DNA of 64,000 nt from a virus. This document shows, one piece after another, positions 26,901 through 41,646 of this stretch. The stretch spans positions 1 through 64,000 of the IMG/VR virus record IMGVR_UViG_3300023719_000001. One strand, given 5' to 3'. The translations under genes and the position numbers were made by a program. The notes below the pieces were generated by a model. The model searched no databases. It was not told the DNA's origin and worked only from the letters and a program-made list of their open reading frames with translations. How positions within the stretch are numbered: the stretch's first letter is position 1; each line of letters starts with the position of its first letter.

Positions 26901-27344
26901 CATTCGACCAACTTGACAGGCCGTAAGACAGATGATACCTTCCCCCCACTCGTTCTGTTCAATGATATTCAAAGAAGTTCGAGGCTTTTTATACATGCCA
27001 TCAATGCAAGCATTTGAAACAATCTTGAACAGATTTTTCAAACCGGTCTCGTTCTTCGCCAGTAAAACAAGATGGTAACGTGGTTGTTTATAGTCTTTTG
27101 TGTCGGCTTTCTCTGCCTGATTATCTACTTCATAAACTTCACAGCCGATGATAGGCTTAATACCTTCTGCTTTACAAGCCTTAACTTGGTCAACAAAAGA
27201 ATGCATCTTGCCATGGTCTGTAACAGCAATAGCCTTCTGACCATTCTCTTTGGCAAAGTCTACAAGTTCCTTGACGGTAAGAATAGAGTCAAGTAACGAA
27301 CCCTGCGCTGTATGTACATGAAGATTTACAAAATTATCTGACAT
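24000..27344 (-). CDS. dnaE: DNA polymerase III alpha subunit (DnaE-type) with N-terminal PHP domain
   Basis: 1114 aa; PHP signature NFVNLHVHTAQGSLLDS, then polymerase core. Confidence 0.9.
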   Translation of the reverse strand: MSDNFVNLHVHTAQGSLLDSILTVKELVDFAKENGQKAIAVTDHGKMHSFVDQVKACKAEGIKPIIGCEVYEVDNQAEKADTKDYKQPRYHLVLLAKNETGLKNLFKIVSNACIDGMYKKPRTSLNIIEQNEWGEGIICLTACQVGRMSRLLVDGNETEAWQLWNKLEWIFDDVFMEVQSHDTPDQAEANAKIAAFIRKYDLPYTITTDAHMLSKEDIDAHSVFVEIGEGREVGESYVDCYLQTENDVLRTLSKQFDEDFIKKGCEMSVKIADMIDDIDIGLGQPNQMPEVKIEGKFDSHFDYLRHLVYATFNKKFGWMSEVEQQTRRNRIEMELDVLKYVDYIDYFIMLYMLCKKADERKIPRGYSRGSGANCLCLFMENVTQIDSVRWDLDFSRFANKGRKSLADFDFDVSKRRRKELIAIAEELFGKENVAPIATFNSLSTKVAIKDIGKVLNEDPESPYYMQIPYELRNEVAKLIPTVKTLDDLGEEVEKEVLLKDILGKSEQLSNVYDKFPLWFKYVMRLEGLPKSMGRHAAGTLITPKPVIEYCPLCMDREGNQMCQLEMHNAMDDLSLVKMDFLGLENLDIIDDTLKMAGLTWEDVDINHLDLSDKAVYDTVYKSGNTIGIFQMESAEARKMCVEAKCDNAEDIIVVNAANRPGTKDSFPTYCSNKLHPETIKLLHPDIKQLFAKTQYILLYQEQALAVFRYAGFPETEVDNARRAIGKKKKDVMASLEVQFRDGLHKKGWNDYQISEMWALILKQASYSFNRGHAVAYGLLSYLTAYLKTHYTEYFMAACMITKEGDSGKMGVFINECDRLHIRVLPPSVNKSDMEFKADAEKHTILFGLKAIKGMGESVASGVIADRPYSGLADFVQRANGGKIGTSNVVKLIKAGAIPTKDKKKILITFANMVFENEYKEKGFHEMASLPKISILKDEYGIDTDSIKDKPTRLALYNKVRRERWEAGTWNRKKEKDKKRNAFMQAFAEKYMQDEHMWEFETLSMFLTSNPIKDACTYIDAGLDTVEDGGKATAICVIVDIQKKKDKRGNQFAYLHVYTTGGIVEMICWASQYARYSSLISKGNDLAILCKRKENSYIVEKMKPYKQWLHDREIA

Positions 27345-36086: not shown

Positions 36087-37187
36087 TTAACCCCAGTCGT
36101 CCTCTTCCTCATTTGCAGGAGTTGCAGTAGACTTGTTGGAACCACCCCACCAAGAAGTGTCGTTCTCAGCAGCCTTGCCGTCGAAGTCCTTCTTAGCCTG
36201 AGTATTGGCAGCAATCTTTGCCCGTGCCTCGGAGATATTGTCCTCTGTGTAAGTAGGTTCCGCATCCTTGTCGCCAGGGTTCGGATCAAAGGAATCAGGA
36301 TTAACGCCCTCAATATACAGCTTACGAACTGCCGGAGTGCTCTGGCGCTTCATCTTATTAGGACCACCCCAGATATTCTCGGTCTCAACTTCCTCAACCT
36401 TCTGCTGATTGACAATGGGGCCAAAACACTCAAAGCTAGTATAAGACTTCAGACGCTTACGAATAGAATCAGCCAGAACCTTATTCTGAGTGTTTGCCTT
36501 ATAGTCAATGAAAAGCTCTGCGTCCTCAATGGTGTTGTAGTTCACAATTTTTGCATCAACAACTACTTCATCATCCTCATCACTCTTGCGGCAACCAGTG
36601 TAAACAATGGTCTGAGTAAACAGAGCCAGCTCCTCGAAACCCTCTGCATCGAAGTCGATTTCCTTAGAGCTCAGAGAAACCTGAGTAGGAACAAATCGAA
36701 TCTGGTGCTTATCGTTGTAAGTGCTGTACTCGATGTTACCACGGACATACACGTTGTCACCGTCATGCAGATTCTCGGAAATCTCCTTAGCTGCATCAAA
36801 ATCGGTCAGAGTCTTGTTATCATTGACGACCTTACCAGACTCATTCGTCTTCTTGGTAACACCGACCTTGACGCCAATCATATCATAGCCTTCCGGTGCA
36901 ACATAAGTCAGACGATCCTTCCAAGCGACTTCCTTCTTATCCTTCTCGATGCCCTTGTCCTTATCGGCACGGCGGAAGAAATAAACCTTATCACGAGGCA
37001 TACCAGCCAGATCAACATAGAAAGTGTTTTCATTGGAAGTCTGAATGCCAAAGCTCAGGACACGGCGCATAGCACCACTCTTAGTCTCCTTCTCGTTATA
37101 GAAGTTGCTACGCTGGGTGCCGGTGACCTTACCAGCCATCTCAAAAGAACCACGGGTCTGAGGAAGATTAAAAATTCTATCTGCCAT
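36087..37187 (-). CDS. putative ssDNA-binding protein
   Basis: 366 aa; acidic C-terminal tail ...ANEEEDDWG; partnered with the Sak4-like gene. Confidence 0.4.
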   Translation of the reverse strand: MADRIFNLPQTRGSFEMAGKVTGTQRSNFYNEKETKSGAMRRVLSFGIQTSNENTFYVDLAGMPRDKVYFFRRADKDKGIEKDKKEVAWKDRLTYVAPEGYDMIGVKVGVTKKTNESGKVVNDNKTLTDFDAAKEISENLHDGDNVYVRGNIEYSTYNDKHQIRFVPTQVSLSSKEIDFDAEGFEELALFTQTIVYTGCRKSDEDDEVVVDAKIVNYNTIEDAELFIDYKANTQNKVLADSIRKRLKSYTSFECFGPIVNQQKVEEVETENIWGGPNKMKRQSTPAVRKLYIEGVNPDSFDPNPGDKDAEPTYTEDNISEARAKIAANTQAKKDFDGKAAENDTSWWGGSNKSTATPANEEEDDWG

Positions 37188-38230: not shown

Positions 38231-38505
38231 AATACACCACTTTCAGCAAACGCATAGTTATGCTTTGCATTCTTATCTGTCCATACGCCCCAATCCATCT
38301 TGTGATGACAATCAGAACATTCACACTCGAACTTTTCCAGTTTCGTCACACAAAACGGACAGAGATACGTGTTCTTCTCCTTCTGAAAGATAGGACTTGC
38401 TGGAATGCTCAAAGAACCTGGGTCGATGGTTACATTGATAGGAATTTTGCTGTTCATCGTGTTACCTCTTATTTGAATTAGCCTTTTATGAGATTTTCTT
38501 ATCAA
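38227..38505 (-). CDS. hypothetical zinc-ribbon protein
   Basis: 92 aa; CPFC...CECSDC. Confidence 0.35.
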   Translation of the reverse strand: MIRKSHKRLIQIRGNTMNSKIPINVTIDPGSLSIPASPIFQKEKNTYLCPFCVTKLEKFECECSDCHHKMDWGVWTDKNAKHNYAFAESGVL

Positions 38506-38911
38506 GCTTCCGCAGTTCTAACTTACTTGGAAGAAAATTTCTACAGAAGTATGCACTTCCAAACGACACTCCCTCGACAGGACTGTCTGTGTGTTCAGGG
38601 TCCATAAATCCGATTCGAGAATCAAAACACAACATCTGTACATCATTTTTAAAAATGTCAAATCGTGTTTTCCCCTGAATACTATTTGCAGGAAGCAGTA
38701 GAGCAAACGGTTTTTCAAGTTCATATGCTCTACGCAGCACATCATCCTTCTTACTAAAAGGAGGATTCGAAATCATAACATCCCAACGTTCTGGTTCATA
38801 TGTAAAGAAATCTTGCCCATTATCGATATGGCTACACTCTACTTTGTACCCAGCATTTCTAAACACCTGCACAAAAGCAGACCATTCTTTATCAAACGGA
38901 CACCAAATCAC
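38486..38911 (-). CDS. N6-adenine DNA methyltransferase-like protein (Dam-like; NPPF motif), possibly 5'-truncated or split
   Basis: 141 aa from a GTG start; catalytic motif IV DVMISNPPFS; no AdoMet motif I within the ORF; a short upstream ORF in another frame ends in GTGA overlapping the start. Confidence 0.5.
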   Translation of the reverse strand: MIWCPFDKEWSAFVQVFRNAGYKVECSHIDNGQDFFTYEPERWDVMISNPPFSKKDDVLRRAYELEKPFALLLPANSIQGKTRFDIFKNDVQMLCFDSRIGFMDPEHTDSPVEGVSFGSAYFCRNFLPSKLELRKLDKKIS

Positions 38912-38924
38912 TGCTTCACTCGAC

Positions 38925-38930
38925 GGGGGG
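38925..38930. repeat. G6 homopolymer tract immediately upstream of the Dam-like gene
   Basis: cgacGGGGGGcaaa; a 1-nt length change would fuse the upstream reading frame to the MTase ORF. Confidence 0.5.
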
Positions 38931-39028
38931 CAAATTCAAGCAATGGAATAACCGCGTAAACCGGTGTGTATCGCTCATCGCCTGCCGCAGATCGGTCAGC
39001 TGTTAAATATCCTTTGTTTTCTGGCAAA

Positions 39029-40505
39029 TTATCCTCCTTGCTTTTCTGGAAAATGCTCCTTAGTTACTGCAACGCAGAACGGTTCGATTTCAGATCCCCA
39101 GATAGCAGTACCATCACCATACGTACTTTCAAAGACAAGCGGAAAGCCACCAATCCCATCGAATAGACTGCCAAGCGTAGGATTTTCACCAATATACGGC
39201 TTCATCTTCTGGCAAATCCAGTACCACTGCGGTAACGCAATCGAATTGCCGAGAGCCTTATAACGAGCTGCGTCAGAAGTCTTGTGCTTCTTCCCATTCT
39301 CATCGATCCAGTCACCGATATCAGTCCATCCGTCAGGGAAACCCTGTAACCGTTCATCCTCCAAAGGAGTCAAGCGGCGAACAATCCATCGTAGATTCTT
39401 AGTTTCCTTCTCTGCAATCAGGTCAGTAGCGTCCTTATAATCACGAGATTTCATCGTGCTGGCGTGTTCGCTTTCCTTGTACTCACCAATGCGCTGCATT
39501 GCAAAGGCTTTCTTTTCAACGACCAGCGGCATATTATTACCGCCCGTTCCCCACTGAGCAGTACAAGTCGGACTTGTATCACCCTGCTGAGTGTATCGAG
39601 CGTCCTGACTGTGACTCTCAAATACCACCGGTGAAATCTTTTGTTTTGAATTATGTAATGATGGATTTTCTACCAAGCAAATTAGCGTCTGGTCTTGCAA
39701 CGTAGAAATCGTTGCGCTCAATTCAGTTTGAACCAGAGCGCCTTTACCTCCGCCTTCACATCCAGAACGGATTTTTAGAGTGTAGGCTGCAGGTTCTGTG
39801 CATCGAGTCGAAGTCTCTCGATGGTCTGACTCCAATACTCGTCCAATTCCTTCTCTTCCAGACCTTCTTGTTCCTTCACTTTCTGCACCACCTGTGACAG
39901 AGTTCCTGGATTCCACCATTCGATCATATCCAGCAACGCTTGCTTCAGGAGTTCGGGCAAAGGTTTTCCACGCCGGGATGCTCTCACAAGAATCCCCTGA
40001 CATGCTCGTGCGCTCAAATAGAATTTCTGAGGCACGTTGTCCTCCAAAATCCATGACAAGCGCGATTCTCTGGCGGCGCTGGGCGACTCCCCAGTATTTA
40101 GCGTCGAACAATCTCCATGCAAGAGACCATCCATTACCGGAAATCGCTCCAGATTTTTCCCACTTTCCGTTCTTTCCTGAAGGTCGAGGAATTGAAACGT
40201 CTGGCTCGACAATGCGTGCAAATCTTTCCAACACACATCTGAAGTCTTCACCTTTGCTTGAGCTGAAAGCTCCTCTGACATTTTCCCAGATTGCGAATTT
40301 TGGATATTCTCCATTAGTGGCCTCCCTCATTTCTGTAATCACACGAATCATTTCAAGGAACAATCCAGAGCGTTCACCAGCCAAACCTTCACGTTTACCG
40401 GCCTGACTCAAATCTTGGCATGGACTGCCTCCTGTGATACAGGAAACCGGTTCAATCTGCCATCCATGAAGTTGTGTAATATCTCCGTAATGCTTCAGTT
40501 TTCAT
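39029..40505 (-). CDS. DNA (cytosine-5)-methyltransferase, circularly permuted; leader ATG at 40505 is out of frame by +1 and an in-frame TGA lies between them
   Basis: hand translation gives HYGDIT (III), GGSPCQDLSQAGKREG (IV), FAIWENV (VI), QRRQRIALV (VIII), TRD SPTCTAQWGTGGNN, RRLTPLEDERLQGFPD (IX), KALGNSIALPQ (X), then C-terminal FDGIGGF (I) + SEIEPFCVAVTKEHFPE; region ~50% GC. Confidence 0.6.
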
Positions 40506-40641: not shown

Positions 40642-40718
40642 TGGTGGGACAGGAGAGATTTGAACTCCCGACCAAGCGGTTATGAGCCGCCAGCTCTGAC
40701 CAACTGAGCTACTATCCC
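40642..40718 (-). tRNA. tRNA-Met (anticodon CAT; elongator Met or Ile2-type), CCA encoded
   Basis: cloverleaf folded by hand: acceptor GGGATAG/CTGTCCC, D-arm GCTC..GAGC, anticodon loop CTCATAA, T-loop TTCAAAT. Confidence 0.8.
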
Positions 40719-40908
40719 ATAAAAACCAGTTAAACAGCTGCAACTATTCAACTGGGCACCTTCCTTATAAAACACTATTGCATCTATATCATATAGACGA
40801 GGAAGGAATAACAGCGATGCACATTTCCTATATCTCGCCCCTTTCGGGGTAGTATTTCGCACAGGCGCGGCCGGGACTGACCGCTTAAAATCCCTACCCA
40901 TACGAAAT

Positions 40909-40983
40909 TGGAGCAGCGAAAGGTAGTCGAAACCTCATCCTCAGCTTGGAAGGCTGATATACTAGCCGTTGTACGACCGCTGC
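40909..40983 (-). tRNA. tRNA-Gly (anticodon TCC), CCA encoded
   Basis: acceptor GCAGCGG/TCGCTGC, anticodon stem-loop TCAGC-CTTCCAA-GCTGA, T-loop TTCGACT. Confidence 0.7.
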
Positions 40984-41089
40984 ATGAGAACCCAGCTTAC
41001 AAAGCACTACTGCACCATCACTGGCGAGCCGGGAATAATAGTGGCAATCAAAGGAGATCAACAAACGGTACGCAACCATTCTATGACCG

Positions 41090-41171
41090 TGGTGCGGATA
41101 GTGGGCATCGAACCCACACGCTAAAGCACCAGAGCCTAAATCTGGCGTGTCTGCCATTCCACCATATCCGC
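41090..41171 (-). tRNA. tRNA-Leu (anticodon TAG), type II, CCA encoded
   Basis: acceptor GCGGATA/TATCCGC, anticodon loop TTTAGGC, long variable arm, T-arm GTGGG-TTCGATG-CCCAC. Confidence 0.8.
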
Positions 41172-41176
41172 ATAAA

Positions 41177-41247
41177 TTGCGCCAACAGGGGTCGAACCTG
41201 TGATGGAGGAGTCAAAGTCCTCTGCCTTACCGCTTGGCGATGGCGCA
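41177..41247 (-). tRNA. tRNA-Gln (anticodon TTG), no encoded CCA
   Basis: U1-A72 acceptor TGCGCCA/TGGCGCA, anticodon loop CTTTGAC, T-arm ACAGG-TTCGACC-CCTGT. Confidence 0.75.
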
Positions 41248-41314
41248 TCATGTACCCAGCTTACTGGAGAATAATCCTACTGCCTTACTATTAAGGAGCT
41301 GGGAATAATAGGAA

Positions 41315-41390
41315 TTGGTCCGAGTGACAGGTCATGATCCTGCGGCCTCATGCTCCCAAAGCACGCGCTCTTCCAACTGAGCTACACCCG
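41315..41390 (-). tRNA. tRNA-Pro (anticodon TGG), CCA encoded; atypical T-loop
   Basis: acceptor CCGGGTG/CACTCGG, D-arm GCTC-AGTTGGAA-GAGC, anticodon loop TTTGGGA; T-loop ATCATGA is unusual. Confidence 0.6.
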
Positions 41391-41397
41391 GATATCA

Positions 41398-41480
41398 GTG
41401 CTACCAGCGGGGGTCGAACCCGCACGTCTTTCGACATCGGTTTTTAAGACCGAAGCGTACTGCCTATTTCGCCATGGTAG
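41398..41480 (-). tRNA. tRNA-Leu (anticodon TAA), type II, no encoded CCA
   Basis: acceptor GCTACCA/TGGTAGC, anticodon stem-loop TCGGT-CTTAAAA-ACCGA, long variable arm, T-arm GCGGG-TTCGACC-CCCGC. Confidence 0.8.
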
Positions 41481-41562
41481 CATATAAAAGCTGTCTGTCC
41501 AGCAGTCAATCGTCTTTCCGATTTGCCAGTTGAGTTTGCCATCCGCTCATCTACACATGAGC

Positions 41563-41646
41563 TGGTAGGGATAGAGGGATTCGGACCCTCACGTCTCTCG
41601 ACACTGGGACTTGAAACCAGCGTGGCTGCCATTTCACCATATCCCC
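41563..41646 (-). tRNA. tRNA-Leu (anticodon CAA), type II, CCA encoded
   Basis: aligns with the Leu(TAG) copy; anticodon loop TTCAAGT, one 31-39 mismatch, G1-U72 wobble. Confidence 0.65.

Follow-up and report, generated by a model that had tools for sequence, protein, structure and literature searches.

Phase-variable DNA methyltransferases are well described in the form of phasevarions, in which repeats in the 5' part of an open reading frame (ORF) encoding an N6-adenine methyltransferase toggle its expression and both states are found in populations; examples include ModA, ModH, and related Type III mod genes, Type I hsdM/hsdS, and the Type IIG gene cj0031 (PMC5909438, PMC7383803, PMC4889913). 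Contingency loci have also been reported in phages, where homopolymers of at least six nucleotides within ORFs give reversible frameshifts by polymerase slippage, and have been read as bet-hedging against host defenses or receptor variation (Gomez, Barrick & Waters 2025 preprint, PMC12633550). The same preprint discusses poly-G tracts in the receptor-binding proteins of Campylobacter Fletchervirus (Sorensen et al. 2021) and mentions, citing Liu et al. (2004, J Bacteriol 186:1503), the finding of polyG tracts in bpm, the methylase gene of Bordetella phage BPP-1; this is the only methylase mentioned in its main text, in which the word "methyltransferase" does not occur. Here we describe a related locus in the first 64,000 nt of the IMG/VR virus record IMGVR_UViG_3300023719_000001 (hereafter the window), where a putative N6-adenine DNA methyltransferase gene is interrupted by a frameshift at a run of six cytosines (C6).

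We consider it likely that this run is a slipped-strand contingency locus, that is, a site of phase variation in an orphan phage methyltransferase, and that the gene is OFF (out of frame) in the window. Although phase-variable methyltransferases, phage contingency loci, and the poly-G tract of the BPP-1 methylase were already known, several features are new here: a very small and distinct methyltransferase family, a widespread group of large gut phages as its carriers, the frequencies of ON (in-frame) and OFF alleles in populations, convergent runs at one loop of the protein, and a second variable run in the adjoining gene.

Two ORFs Are the Halves of One Methyltransferase Gene

An earlier reading of this DNA made from its letters alone (hereafter the sequence-only reading) had described a 141-amino acid (aa) ORF that starts with GTG and carries DVMISNPPFS, a short upstream ORF in another frame whose TGA overlaps that GTG as GTGA, and a G6 homopolymer inside the short ORF. 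All three were found as described (table 1). The short ORF had been taken for a leader; we found that the two ORFs are instead the halves of one gene, with a frameshift at the C6 run between them. Seven positions within the N-terminal 32 residues of the enzyme (D17, E18, Y24, A25, P28, E31, and F32) are invariant when 46 homologues are aligned, and none of them is present in the 141-aa form. The latter holds strand 1, the NPPF motif IV (within DVMISNPPFS), and the C-terminal beta region, while the product of the 39-codon ORF is MPENKGYLTADRSAAGDERYTPVYAVIPLLEFAPRRVKQ, which ends in EFAPRRVKQ before the stop codon.

The run occupies codons 33–35 of the 180-codon gene and falls 14 nt 5' of the GTGA overlap, which derives from GCA-GTG-ATT in the other frame; GTGATTTGG is common to all lineage-A loci at this overlap. 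Adding one C gives a single 180-codon ORF (containing LLEFAPPSSEAVIWCPFD) and removing one C leads to an early stop, the in-frame run lengths being 7, 10, 13, and 16. After correction to C7, the fused protein matched the phage family phrog_799 across the junction (residues 17–162, E-value = 3.8e-32), and the 141-aa part alone matched it with an E-value of 9.1e-27. In addition, full-length homologues of 180 or 181 aa were detected (P0001–P0003), which align with the whole of the fused query (100%) at 97%, 94%, and 92% identity, and relatives use ATG or TTG as the start codon at the identical position. Considering the invariant N-terminal positions, the full-length homologues, and the junction-spanning match, the supposed leader is the N-terminus of the enzyme (codons 1–32) plus seven out-of-frame codons. 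Gene callers report a gene of this kind as two, a "hypothetical 39-aa ORF" and a shortened methyltransferase, and the shortened 141-aa form is also present in a large protein database (P0008).

The occurrence of a G6 run is not improbable by itself, as approximately 1.2 G runs of at least six nucleotides are expected per 64 kb under a model of independent and identically distributed bases. G/C runs of at least six nucleotides are depleted in the window (2 observed vs. ~12 expected). What makes the run nontrivial is that its length varies between related genomes.

Run Length Varies between Near-Identical Phages

Among loci fetched via the ON and OFF proteins (L001–L023), we observed run lengths of 6, 7, 8, 9, 10, 11, 12, and 14, and the overall span is 5–16 nt in related human-gut phage contigs of ~70–170 kb. 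Allele frequencies were obtained from a frame-unselected census, which combined a DNA pattern across the run (IMG/VR and metagenome contigs) with a protein-seeded scan of IMG/VR, and which comprises 36 distinct contigs of the window's lineage (31 from IMG/VR and 5 from metagenomes). The gene is in frame in 23 of these contigs and out of frame in the other 13 (~36% OFF). C7 was found in 19 contigs, C6 in 10, and TC6 or TTC5 (7 nt) in 3; C8, C11, C7TC4 (12 nt), and C12AC3 (16 nt) were each found once. The proportion in frame exceeds the one third expected by chance (P-value = 1.7e-4, binomial test in which phylogeny is ignored).

We also compared near-identical loci that come from different samples. 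L015, L016, and L020, from three samples, show two or three mismatches per pair over 6,426 bp and a single gap, located at the run (11, 8, and 12 nt, respectively). L024 differs from L028 by one mismatch over 4,285 bp, and L029 from L028 by none over 2,062 bp, with one gap at the run in each case (6 vs. 7). Finally, L019 and L023 have no mismatches over 6,426 bp and two gaps, one at the run (14 vs. 11) and the other at a G run in the neighboring methyltransferase gene. The presence of different run lengths alongside only 0–3 substitutions indicates that run length changes far faster than point substitutions arise. The nearest ON relatives of the C6 allele in the window (L030 and L060) are 12 substitutions and one C apart from it.

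Homopolymers are error-prone on some sequencing platforms and lengths of 11–16 are uncertain in short-read assemblies, raising the question of whether the frameshift is an error introduced in sequencing or assembly. However, many independent assemblies, produced by different projects, share the C6 state (the identical 141-aa sequence was recorded in 258 blocks of a public assembly collection), relatives with C6, C8, C9, C11, C12, and C14 occur in separate samples, and distinguishing C6 from C7 is well inside short-read accuracy. Furthermore, L015, L016, and L020 differ by no other single-base indel, and hence their other A/T runs of 6–7 nt are invariant among them. Since near-identical loci differ at the run, a one-off sequencing error is ruled out, and we find an artifact barely credible as the origin of the frameshift. 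The suggestion of the sequence-only reading that a homopolymer at the 5' end of the gene serves as a phase-variation switch is supported by this heterogeneity in length between samples, together with the methyltransferase N-terminal region encoded in the frame of the short ORF. Neither of the two conditions by which that reading would have been refuted, a constant tract length and the absence of an N-terminal domain from every frame, therefore holds.

OFF Alleles Are Otherwise Intact and under Purifying Selection

When the run was set to C7, an intact 180-codon ORF was obtained in 41 of the 42 loci tested; the remaining one (L025) has 172 codons and an earlier stop. Median pairwise dN/dS was 0.080 overall, 0.082 among OFF-only alleles, and 0.084 among ON-only alleles, and several identical alleles were found in both ON and OFF states. 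Thus, the run is essentially the sole lesion in OFF alleles, and purifying selection acts on these as it does on ON alleles. Such a low dN/dS in OFF alleles is the mark of a regularly used gene and, as the pattern expected of reversible switching, supports it indirectly. The sequence-only reading had also considered that the methyltransferase might be split or decayed. It is literally split in the window, but decay is contradicted by the intact ORFs and by the low dN/dS of OFF alleles.

In one further contig, L065 (IMGVR_UViG_3300045988_110667, locus ~1600–1640), which lies outside those 42 loci, an out-of-frame C11 is accompanied by a 1-nt deletion in the Trp42 codon (GTGATTTGTGTCC). This may represent either an OFF allele that is starting to decay or an assembly error.

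Homopolymers Recur at the Same Loop in Three Lineages

The C run sits in a variable loop between the N-terminal helix (GDExYTPxYAVxPLLEF) and strand 1 (IWCPFD), where a short variable linker is followed by W42-C43-P44-x-D46, which is invariant in the 46 homologues. To examine this loop across the wider family, we collected 144 loci from IMG/VR and GTDB genomes and scored frameshifts between the N-terminal motif and WCP. Frameshifts were present in 12 of the 48 loci whose linker contains a homopolymer of at least six nucleotides and in none of the 96 loci without one (P-value = 6.7e-7, Fisher's exact test). In a second lineage, C8 is in frame (L109) and C9 is out of frame (L124). In a third lineage the homopolymer is poly-A, with A8 in frame (L118, L119, and L121) and A7 out of frame (L126 and L128), and the ORF is otherwise intact. 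Three lineages therefore have homopolymers at this loop, each with ON and OFF alleles. In-frame C7 or C8 runs were also observed at the same site in other gene neighborhoods (L044–L048); when IMG/VR was scanned twice with DNA patterns for the L045-type and L044/L048-type lineages, no run variants were returned. Prophage-like copies from Ruminococcus contain CCGAAAGACAAGAAG at the run position and are always in frame. Interrupted in-frame versions such as TTCCCCC and TCCCCCC exist (L067–L069), and pure runs of up to 14 nonetheless remain. A locked form of the allele would be of the CCTCCACC type. That slippery runs keep appearing at a single tolerant loop, and persist although interrupted versions exist, argues that they are maintained and not an accident.

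These observations bear on a different explanation, in which the gene is dispensable and the run within it a neutral mutational hotspot, with repeated loss of the gene by frameshift, no evolved switch, and no bet-hedging benefit. Such a hotspot would be in agreement with the ~36% of census alleles that are out of frame, with the second lesion in L065, and with the plasticity of the region, in which the neighboring C5-methyltransferase is swapped or replaced in relatives. It would not be expected, on the other hand, to leave OFF-only alleles otherwise intact with a dN/dS of 0.08, like that of ON alleles, or to place poly-C twice and poly-A once at the same loop, with both states, in three lineages. 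Synonymous or near-synonymous interruption is possible, both here (L067–L069) and in the C5-methyltransferase gene (GGCGGAGG), yet pure runs of up to 14 persist. The in-frame excess over one third (23/36, P-value = 1.7e-4, relatedness ignored) also speaks against neutrality, and we regard this explanation as unlikely.

A Proposed Switch in Phage DNA Methylation

A reasonable hypothesis is that C's are gained or lost by slipped-strand mispairing as the phage DNA is replicated; a gene for a PolIII-alpha-like polymerase is present in the phage itself (table 1). Runs of C7, C10, C13, or C16 would give the full enzyme (ON), other lengths would stop translation after ~37–41 codons (OFF), and the C6 of the window would be OFF, one C short of ON. 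Switching would be reversible within phage populations, and the 141-aa remnant would be inactive. Based on general knowledge of restriction systems, methylated progeny might escape methylation-sensitive restriction and unmethylated progeny might be spared by methylation-dependent (Type IV or DpnI-like) restriction or save a cost of methylation, so that the switch could serve as a form of bet-hedging. Because the enzyme that modifies progeny DNA would be the one encoded by the infecting genome, phenotype is predicted to be one infection cycle behind genotype.

It is also conceivable that OFF is not truly off and that the run tunes methylation, by way of frameshifting or RNA-polymerase slippage, termination-reinitiation at GTGA, or a split enzyme made of the 39-aa and 141-aa products. 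The GTGA overlap is real and occurs in all lineage-A alleles examined, the stop of the other wrong frame also lies within 5 nt of GTG (in gene calls, leaders end at 2996 or 3004), and re-initiation at GTGA appears possible from the sequence. Long homopolymers can also cause transcriptional slippage. However, three frame classes occur (6/9/12, 8/11/14, and 7/10/16), so that no single programmed shift fits, and the in-frame alleles are the commonest, which a programmed shift would harm. In addition, no Shine-Dalgarno sequence was found ahead of GTG when the sequence was read directly, the 141-aa product lacks the seven family-invariant residues, and RNA polymerase would not be expected to slip appreciably on a run as short as C6. 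A leaky OFF state therefore seems quite unlikely to us. A programmed ribosomal frameshift was considered separately and rejected, as there is no fixed frame relation across relatives: all frame classes were observed, and uninterrupted in-frame alleles are commonest.

Several points weigh against a phase-variable switch. The evidence consists of consensus contigs, with heterogeneity seen between samples and not within reads, and the census is not phylogenetically independent, many of its IMG/VR contigs being from dataset 3300045988. C6 and C7 runs are short for fast switching, and runs of 11–16 in short-read assemblies may be mis-sized. Judging from the second lesion in L065, some OFF alleles do decay, and the OFF state may be leaky via re-initiation at GTGA or slippage on long runs.

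If the locus is a phase-variable switch, as we think likely, it has several implications. Phage methyltransferases are usually viewed as fixed anti-restriction equipment, whereas the methylation state of a common gut phage here appears to be inherited and to switch rapidly: about one third of natural genomes are OFF while the gene overall is under strong purifying selection. This would provide natural-population evidence for the recently proposed use of contingency loci by phages, and hints at methylation-dependent defenses as a selective force in the gut. In practice, methylation-based host linking of phage contigs would differ between ON and OFF variants of one phage.

The Enzyme Belongs to a Small Phage Family

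The window protein belongs to the small phage family phrog_799, which is annotated as "DNA methyltransferase". The catalytic motif IV is present, SNPPFS being invariant across the 46 homologues. The sequence-only reading had pointed to the lack of the S-adenosylmethionine-binding motif I. The canonical motif is indeed absent, but this is a family-wide trait and does not result from shortening: the glycine-rich motif I (FxGxG) was found in no family member, and an invariant W-C-P-x-D...S is present after strand 1 instead.

An AlphaFold2 model of P0001 showed a compact Rossmann methyltransferase fold (predicted local distance difference test, pLDDT, 84.6; predicted template modeling score, pTM, 0.82). 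The top Foldseek matches are mostly N6-adenine methyltransferases, including the tRNA m6A enzyme TrmM (7wm6), PacII M (7vs4), Type I HsdM (3ufb), and CamA (7rfm), with E-values of 6e-5 to 1e-3 and TM-scores of only 0.42–0.52. Because enzymes acting on tRNA and rRNA adenine are among these fold matches, a DNA substrate is deduced from the phage context and the PHROG annotation. Based on the NPPF motif and the modeled fold, the protein is most likely an amino-methyltransferase with DNA adenine as its substrate.

The Pfam family EcoRI_methylase (PF13651) matched the protein with 20.1 bits, under the cut-off of 26.4, over 53 residues of the 345-position model. This match centers on the NPPF region, and several homologues at 60–83% identity carry a precomputed PF13651 hit, so the kinship to this family is probably distant but real. 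The protein had also been called Dam-like, but we rejected membership in the Dam and D12 families: PF05869 gave 13.5 bits against a cut-off of 28.1 (E-value = 0.058), and PF02086 (D12) was not among the Pfam matches at E-value ≤1.

A sequence search of the fused protein against the PDB gave nothing meaningful (best E-value = 0.6), an NCBIfam scan assigned no family, and BLAST against phage GenBank entries revealed no close isolate. The partial matches in the latter search, at 66–74% identity, include annotated proteins such as a "tRNA (adenine-N6)-methyltransferase" of a Fusobacterium phage and a "sugar-phosphate nucleotidyltransferase" of a Thermus phage. Relatives were found in many gut phage contigs and in genomes and metagenome-assembled genomes of Ruminococcus, Oscillospiraceae, and other Clostridia.

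A Neighboring C5-Cytosine Methyltransferase with a Second Variable Run in Relatives

Upstream of the adenine methyltransferase gene lies a gene for a circularly permuted C5-cytosine methyltransferase (C5-methyltransferase), in which motifs IV–X occupy the front of the protein and motifs I (LFDGIGG) and II its C-terminus. The two genes had been described as back-to-back. They are actually on the same strand and in tandem, with 1 nt between the TAA of the C5-methyltransferase (39031–39029) and the TTG at 39027; the AGGAGG of the adenine methyltransferase within the C5-methyltransferase 3' end likewise marks the two as a tandem pair. From this arrangement, the pair is probably cotranscribed.

The catalytic motif IV of the C5-methyltransferase (GGSPCQDLSQAGKREG, GGSPCQ; Cys codon at 40420–40418) is in frame 5' of the TTG with which the ORF is listed. 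An in-frame TGA is located at 40504–40502, and no ATG, GTG, or TTG occurs from there to motif IV or the TTG; an out-of-frame ATG overlaps the TGA. A conserved CTG at 40498–40496, 8 nt past an AGGAGG, is probably the start codon. Gene callers give 457 aa in C5-methyltransferase relatives and so miss the catalytic cysteine. The central (target-recognition) part of this protein is mosaic, some contigs having it split into ORFs of 237 and 248 aa, and other contigs carry in its place a 210-aa ORF without a Pfam match.

In place of the interrupted GGCGGAGG of the window, many relatives have TCTGGCTGCGCA-Gn-TAAAGG or TCTGGCTGCGCA-Gn-TAAAGGAGC with pure runs of G7, G8, G9, G10, or G11 (L019, L021, L023, L027, L031, L049–L051, L071, and L072; codons ...SGCA-GGG-KGA...). 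L019 and L023, which show no mismatches over 6.4 kb, have G9 and G8, respectively. With this variable G run next door, some genomes have variable runs in both tandem methyltransferases, and the poly-G run may give the module a further contingency locus.

More tentatively, the two genes could form an epigenetic module of abundant large human-gut phages, in which a poly-C-toggled N6-adenine methyltransferase and a C5-methyltransferase that in many relatives is poly-G-toggled would specify up to four heritable methylation states of virion DNA as a bet-hedging device, with at least three independent origins of the switch at the adenine methyltransferase loop (poly-C twice and poly-A once). We hold this broader proposal with somewhat more doubt than belief. 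If true, the module would be a device against hosts that alternate methylation-sensitive and methylation-dependent restriction.

Genome Context

The neighbors of the adenine methyltransferase gene are the C5-methyltransferase and small zinc-ribbon-like ORFs, and there is no membership in a restriction-modification system; no annotated nuclease was found among the flanking ORFs examined. The likely target of the enzyme is the phage's own DNA. GATC is rare in the window (119 observed vs. 300 expected from trinucleotide frequencies, observed/expected = 0.40), CGCG has an observed/expected ratio of 0.53, and many 6-bp palindromes are absent from the window. Palindrome depletion suggests restriction pressure on the phage, and the depletion of GATC makes GATC-directed systems a candidate pressure, which we note only as a lead. 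The sole other G/C run of at least six nucleotides in the 64 kb (26942–26947) was weighed as a candidate second switch and set aside; it encodes WGEG in the intact PolIII-alpha-like gene.

Compared with L014 and L017, loci L015, L016, and L020 carry an additional ~300 bp ahead of the C5-methyltransferase gene, inserted in the intergenic region that corresponds to the tRNA-bearing one of the window. A SPbeta-type replication gene, YorF (PF27337), is present in the window's lineage (36087–37187 on the minus strand of the window; loci L001–L023), which also has kinase-phosphatase-RNA ligase and RNA ligase genes; a PolIII-alpha-like polymerase gene is likewise found in the related contigs. L044, whose methyltransferase is 84% identical, has YorH (PF26927), an AAA_24 ATPase, and a DnaB-like helicase. 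Together with contig sizes of ~70–170 kb, gene content of this kind points to a large, distantly SPbeta-like phage that infects gut Clostridia, without a cultured relative in the phage database; the host is probably a strain of Oscillospiraceae, Ruminococcus, or Lachnospiraceae.

Table 1. Features of the methyltransferase locus and its surroundings in the window.
Feature	Position	Strand	Remarks
Putative N6-adenine DNA methyltransferase gene, complete	38486..39027	-	180 codons with C7; frameshifted here, probable OFF allele
Homopolymer run (C6 on coding strand, G6 on plus strand)	38925..38930	-	Candidate switch
5' segment (39-aa ORF)	38908..39027	-	TTG start, 32 true codons, 7 out-of-frame codons, TGA
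3' segment (141-codon ORF)	38486..38911	-	GTG is Val40 of the full protein
GTGA overlap	38908..38911	-	Stop of the shifted frame over in-frame GTG
AGGAGG Shine-Dalgarno	39033..39038	-	5 nt 5' of TTG, inside C5-methyltransferase 3' end
Circularly permuted C5-cytosine methyltransferase gene	39029..40498	-	From the probable CTG start; listed ORF from TTG 40411
GGCGGAGG in C5-methyltransferase gene	39747..39754	-	Interrupted in-frame counterpart of the pure poly-G of relatives
PolIII-alpha (DnaE)-like gene, 1114 aa	24000-27344	-	Intact
Seven tRNA genes (Met, Gly, Leu x3, Gln, Pro)	40642-41646	-	Immediately upstream of the methyltransferase pair

Comparison with Known Systems

Compared with EcoRI_methylase, the window protein is half the size of M.EcoRI, and the two share the sub-threshold match around the NPPF region. 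The likeness to phasevarions lies in the mechanism, as in both cases frameshifts at a simple sequence repeat or homopolymer in the 5' part of an N6-adenine methyltransferase gene would toggle the enzyme, and both ON and OFF states are found. Phasevarion methyltransferases, however, are encoded on the chromosome, form part of restriction-modification systems that include a partner nuclease, and control host genes, whereas the present one is a 180-aa orphan methyltransferase of a phage. The locus also resembles the contingency loci of other phages in that frameshifts in phage ORFs are driven by homopolymers. The genes reported in those cases include T4 rIIA, other T2/T4 genes, and receptor-binding proteins, and our evidence is comparative and metagenomic rather than experimental.

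The BPP-1 methylase is similar in that a phage-encoded DNA methylase has a G/C homopolymer within its coding region. The BPP-1 tract is reportedly a frameshift hotspot and its enzyme is said to be an adenine methylase. BPP-1 is a small podovirus of Bordetella, in contrast to the gut Clostridia-associated contigs of ~70–170 kb described here, and the comparison made here is one of tracts. Beyond what is described for BPP-1, the present case offers natural frequencies of ON and OFF alleles, convergent homopolymers across three lineages, and, in the adjacent C5-methyltransferase, another run that varies.

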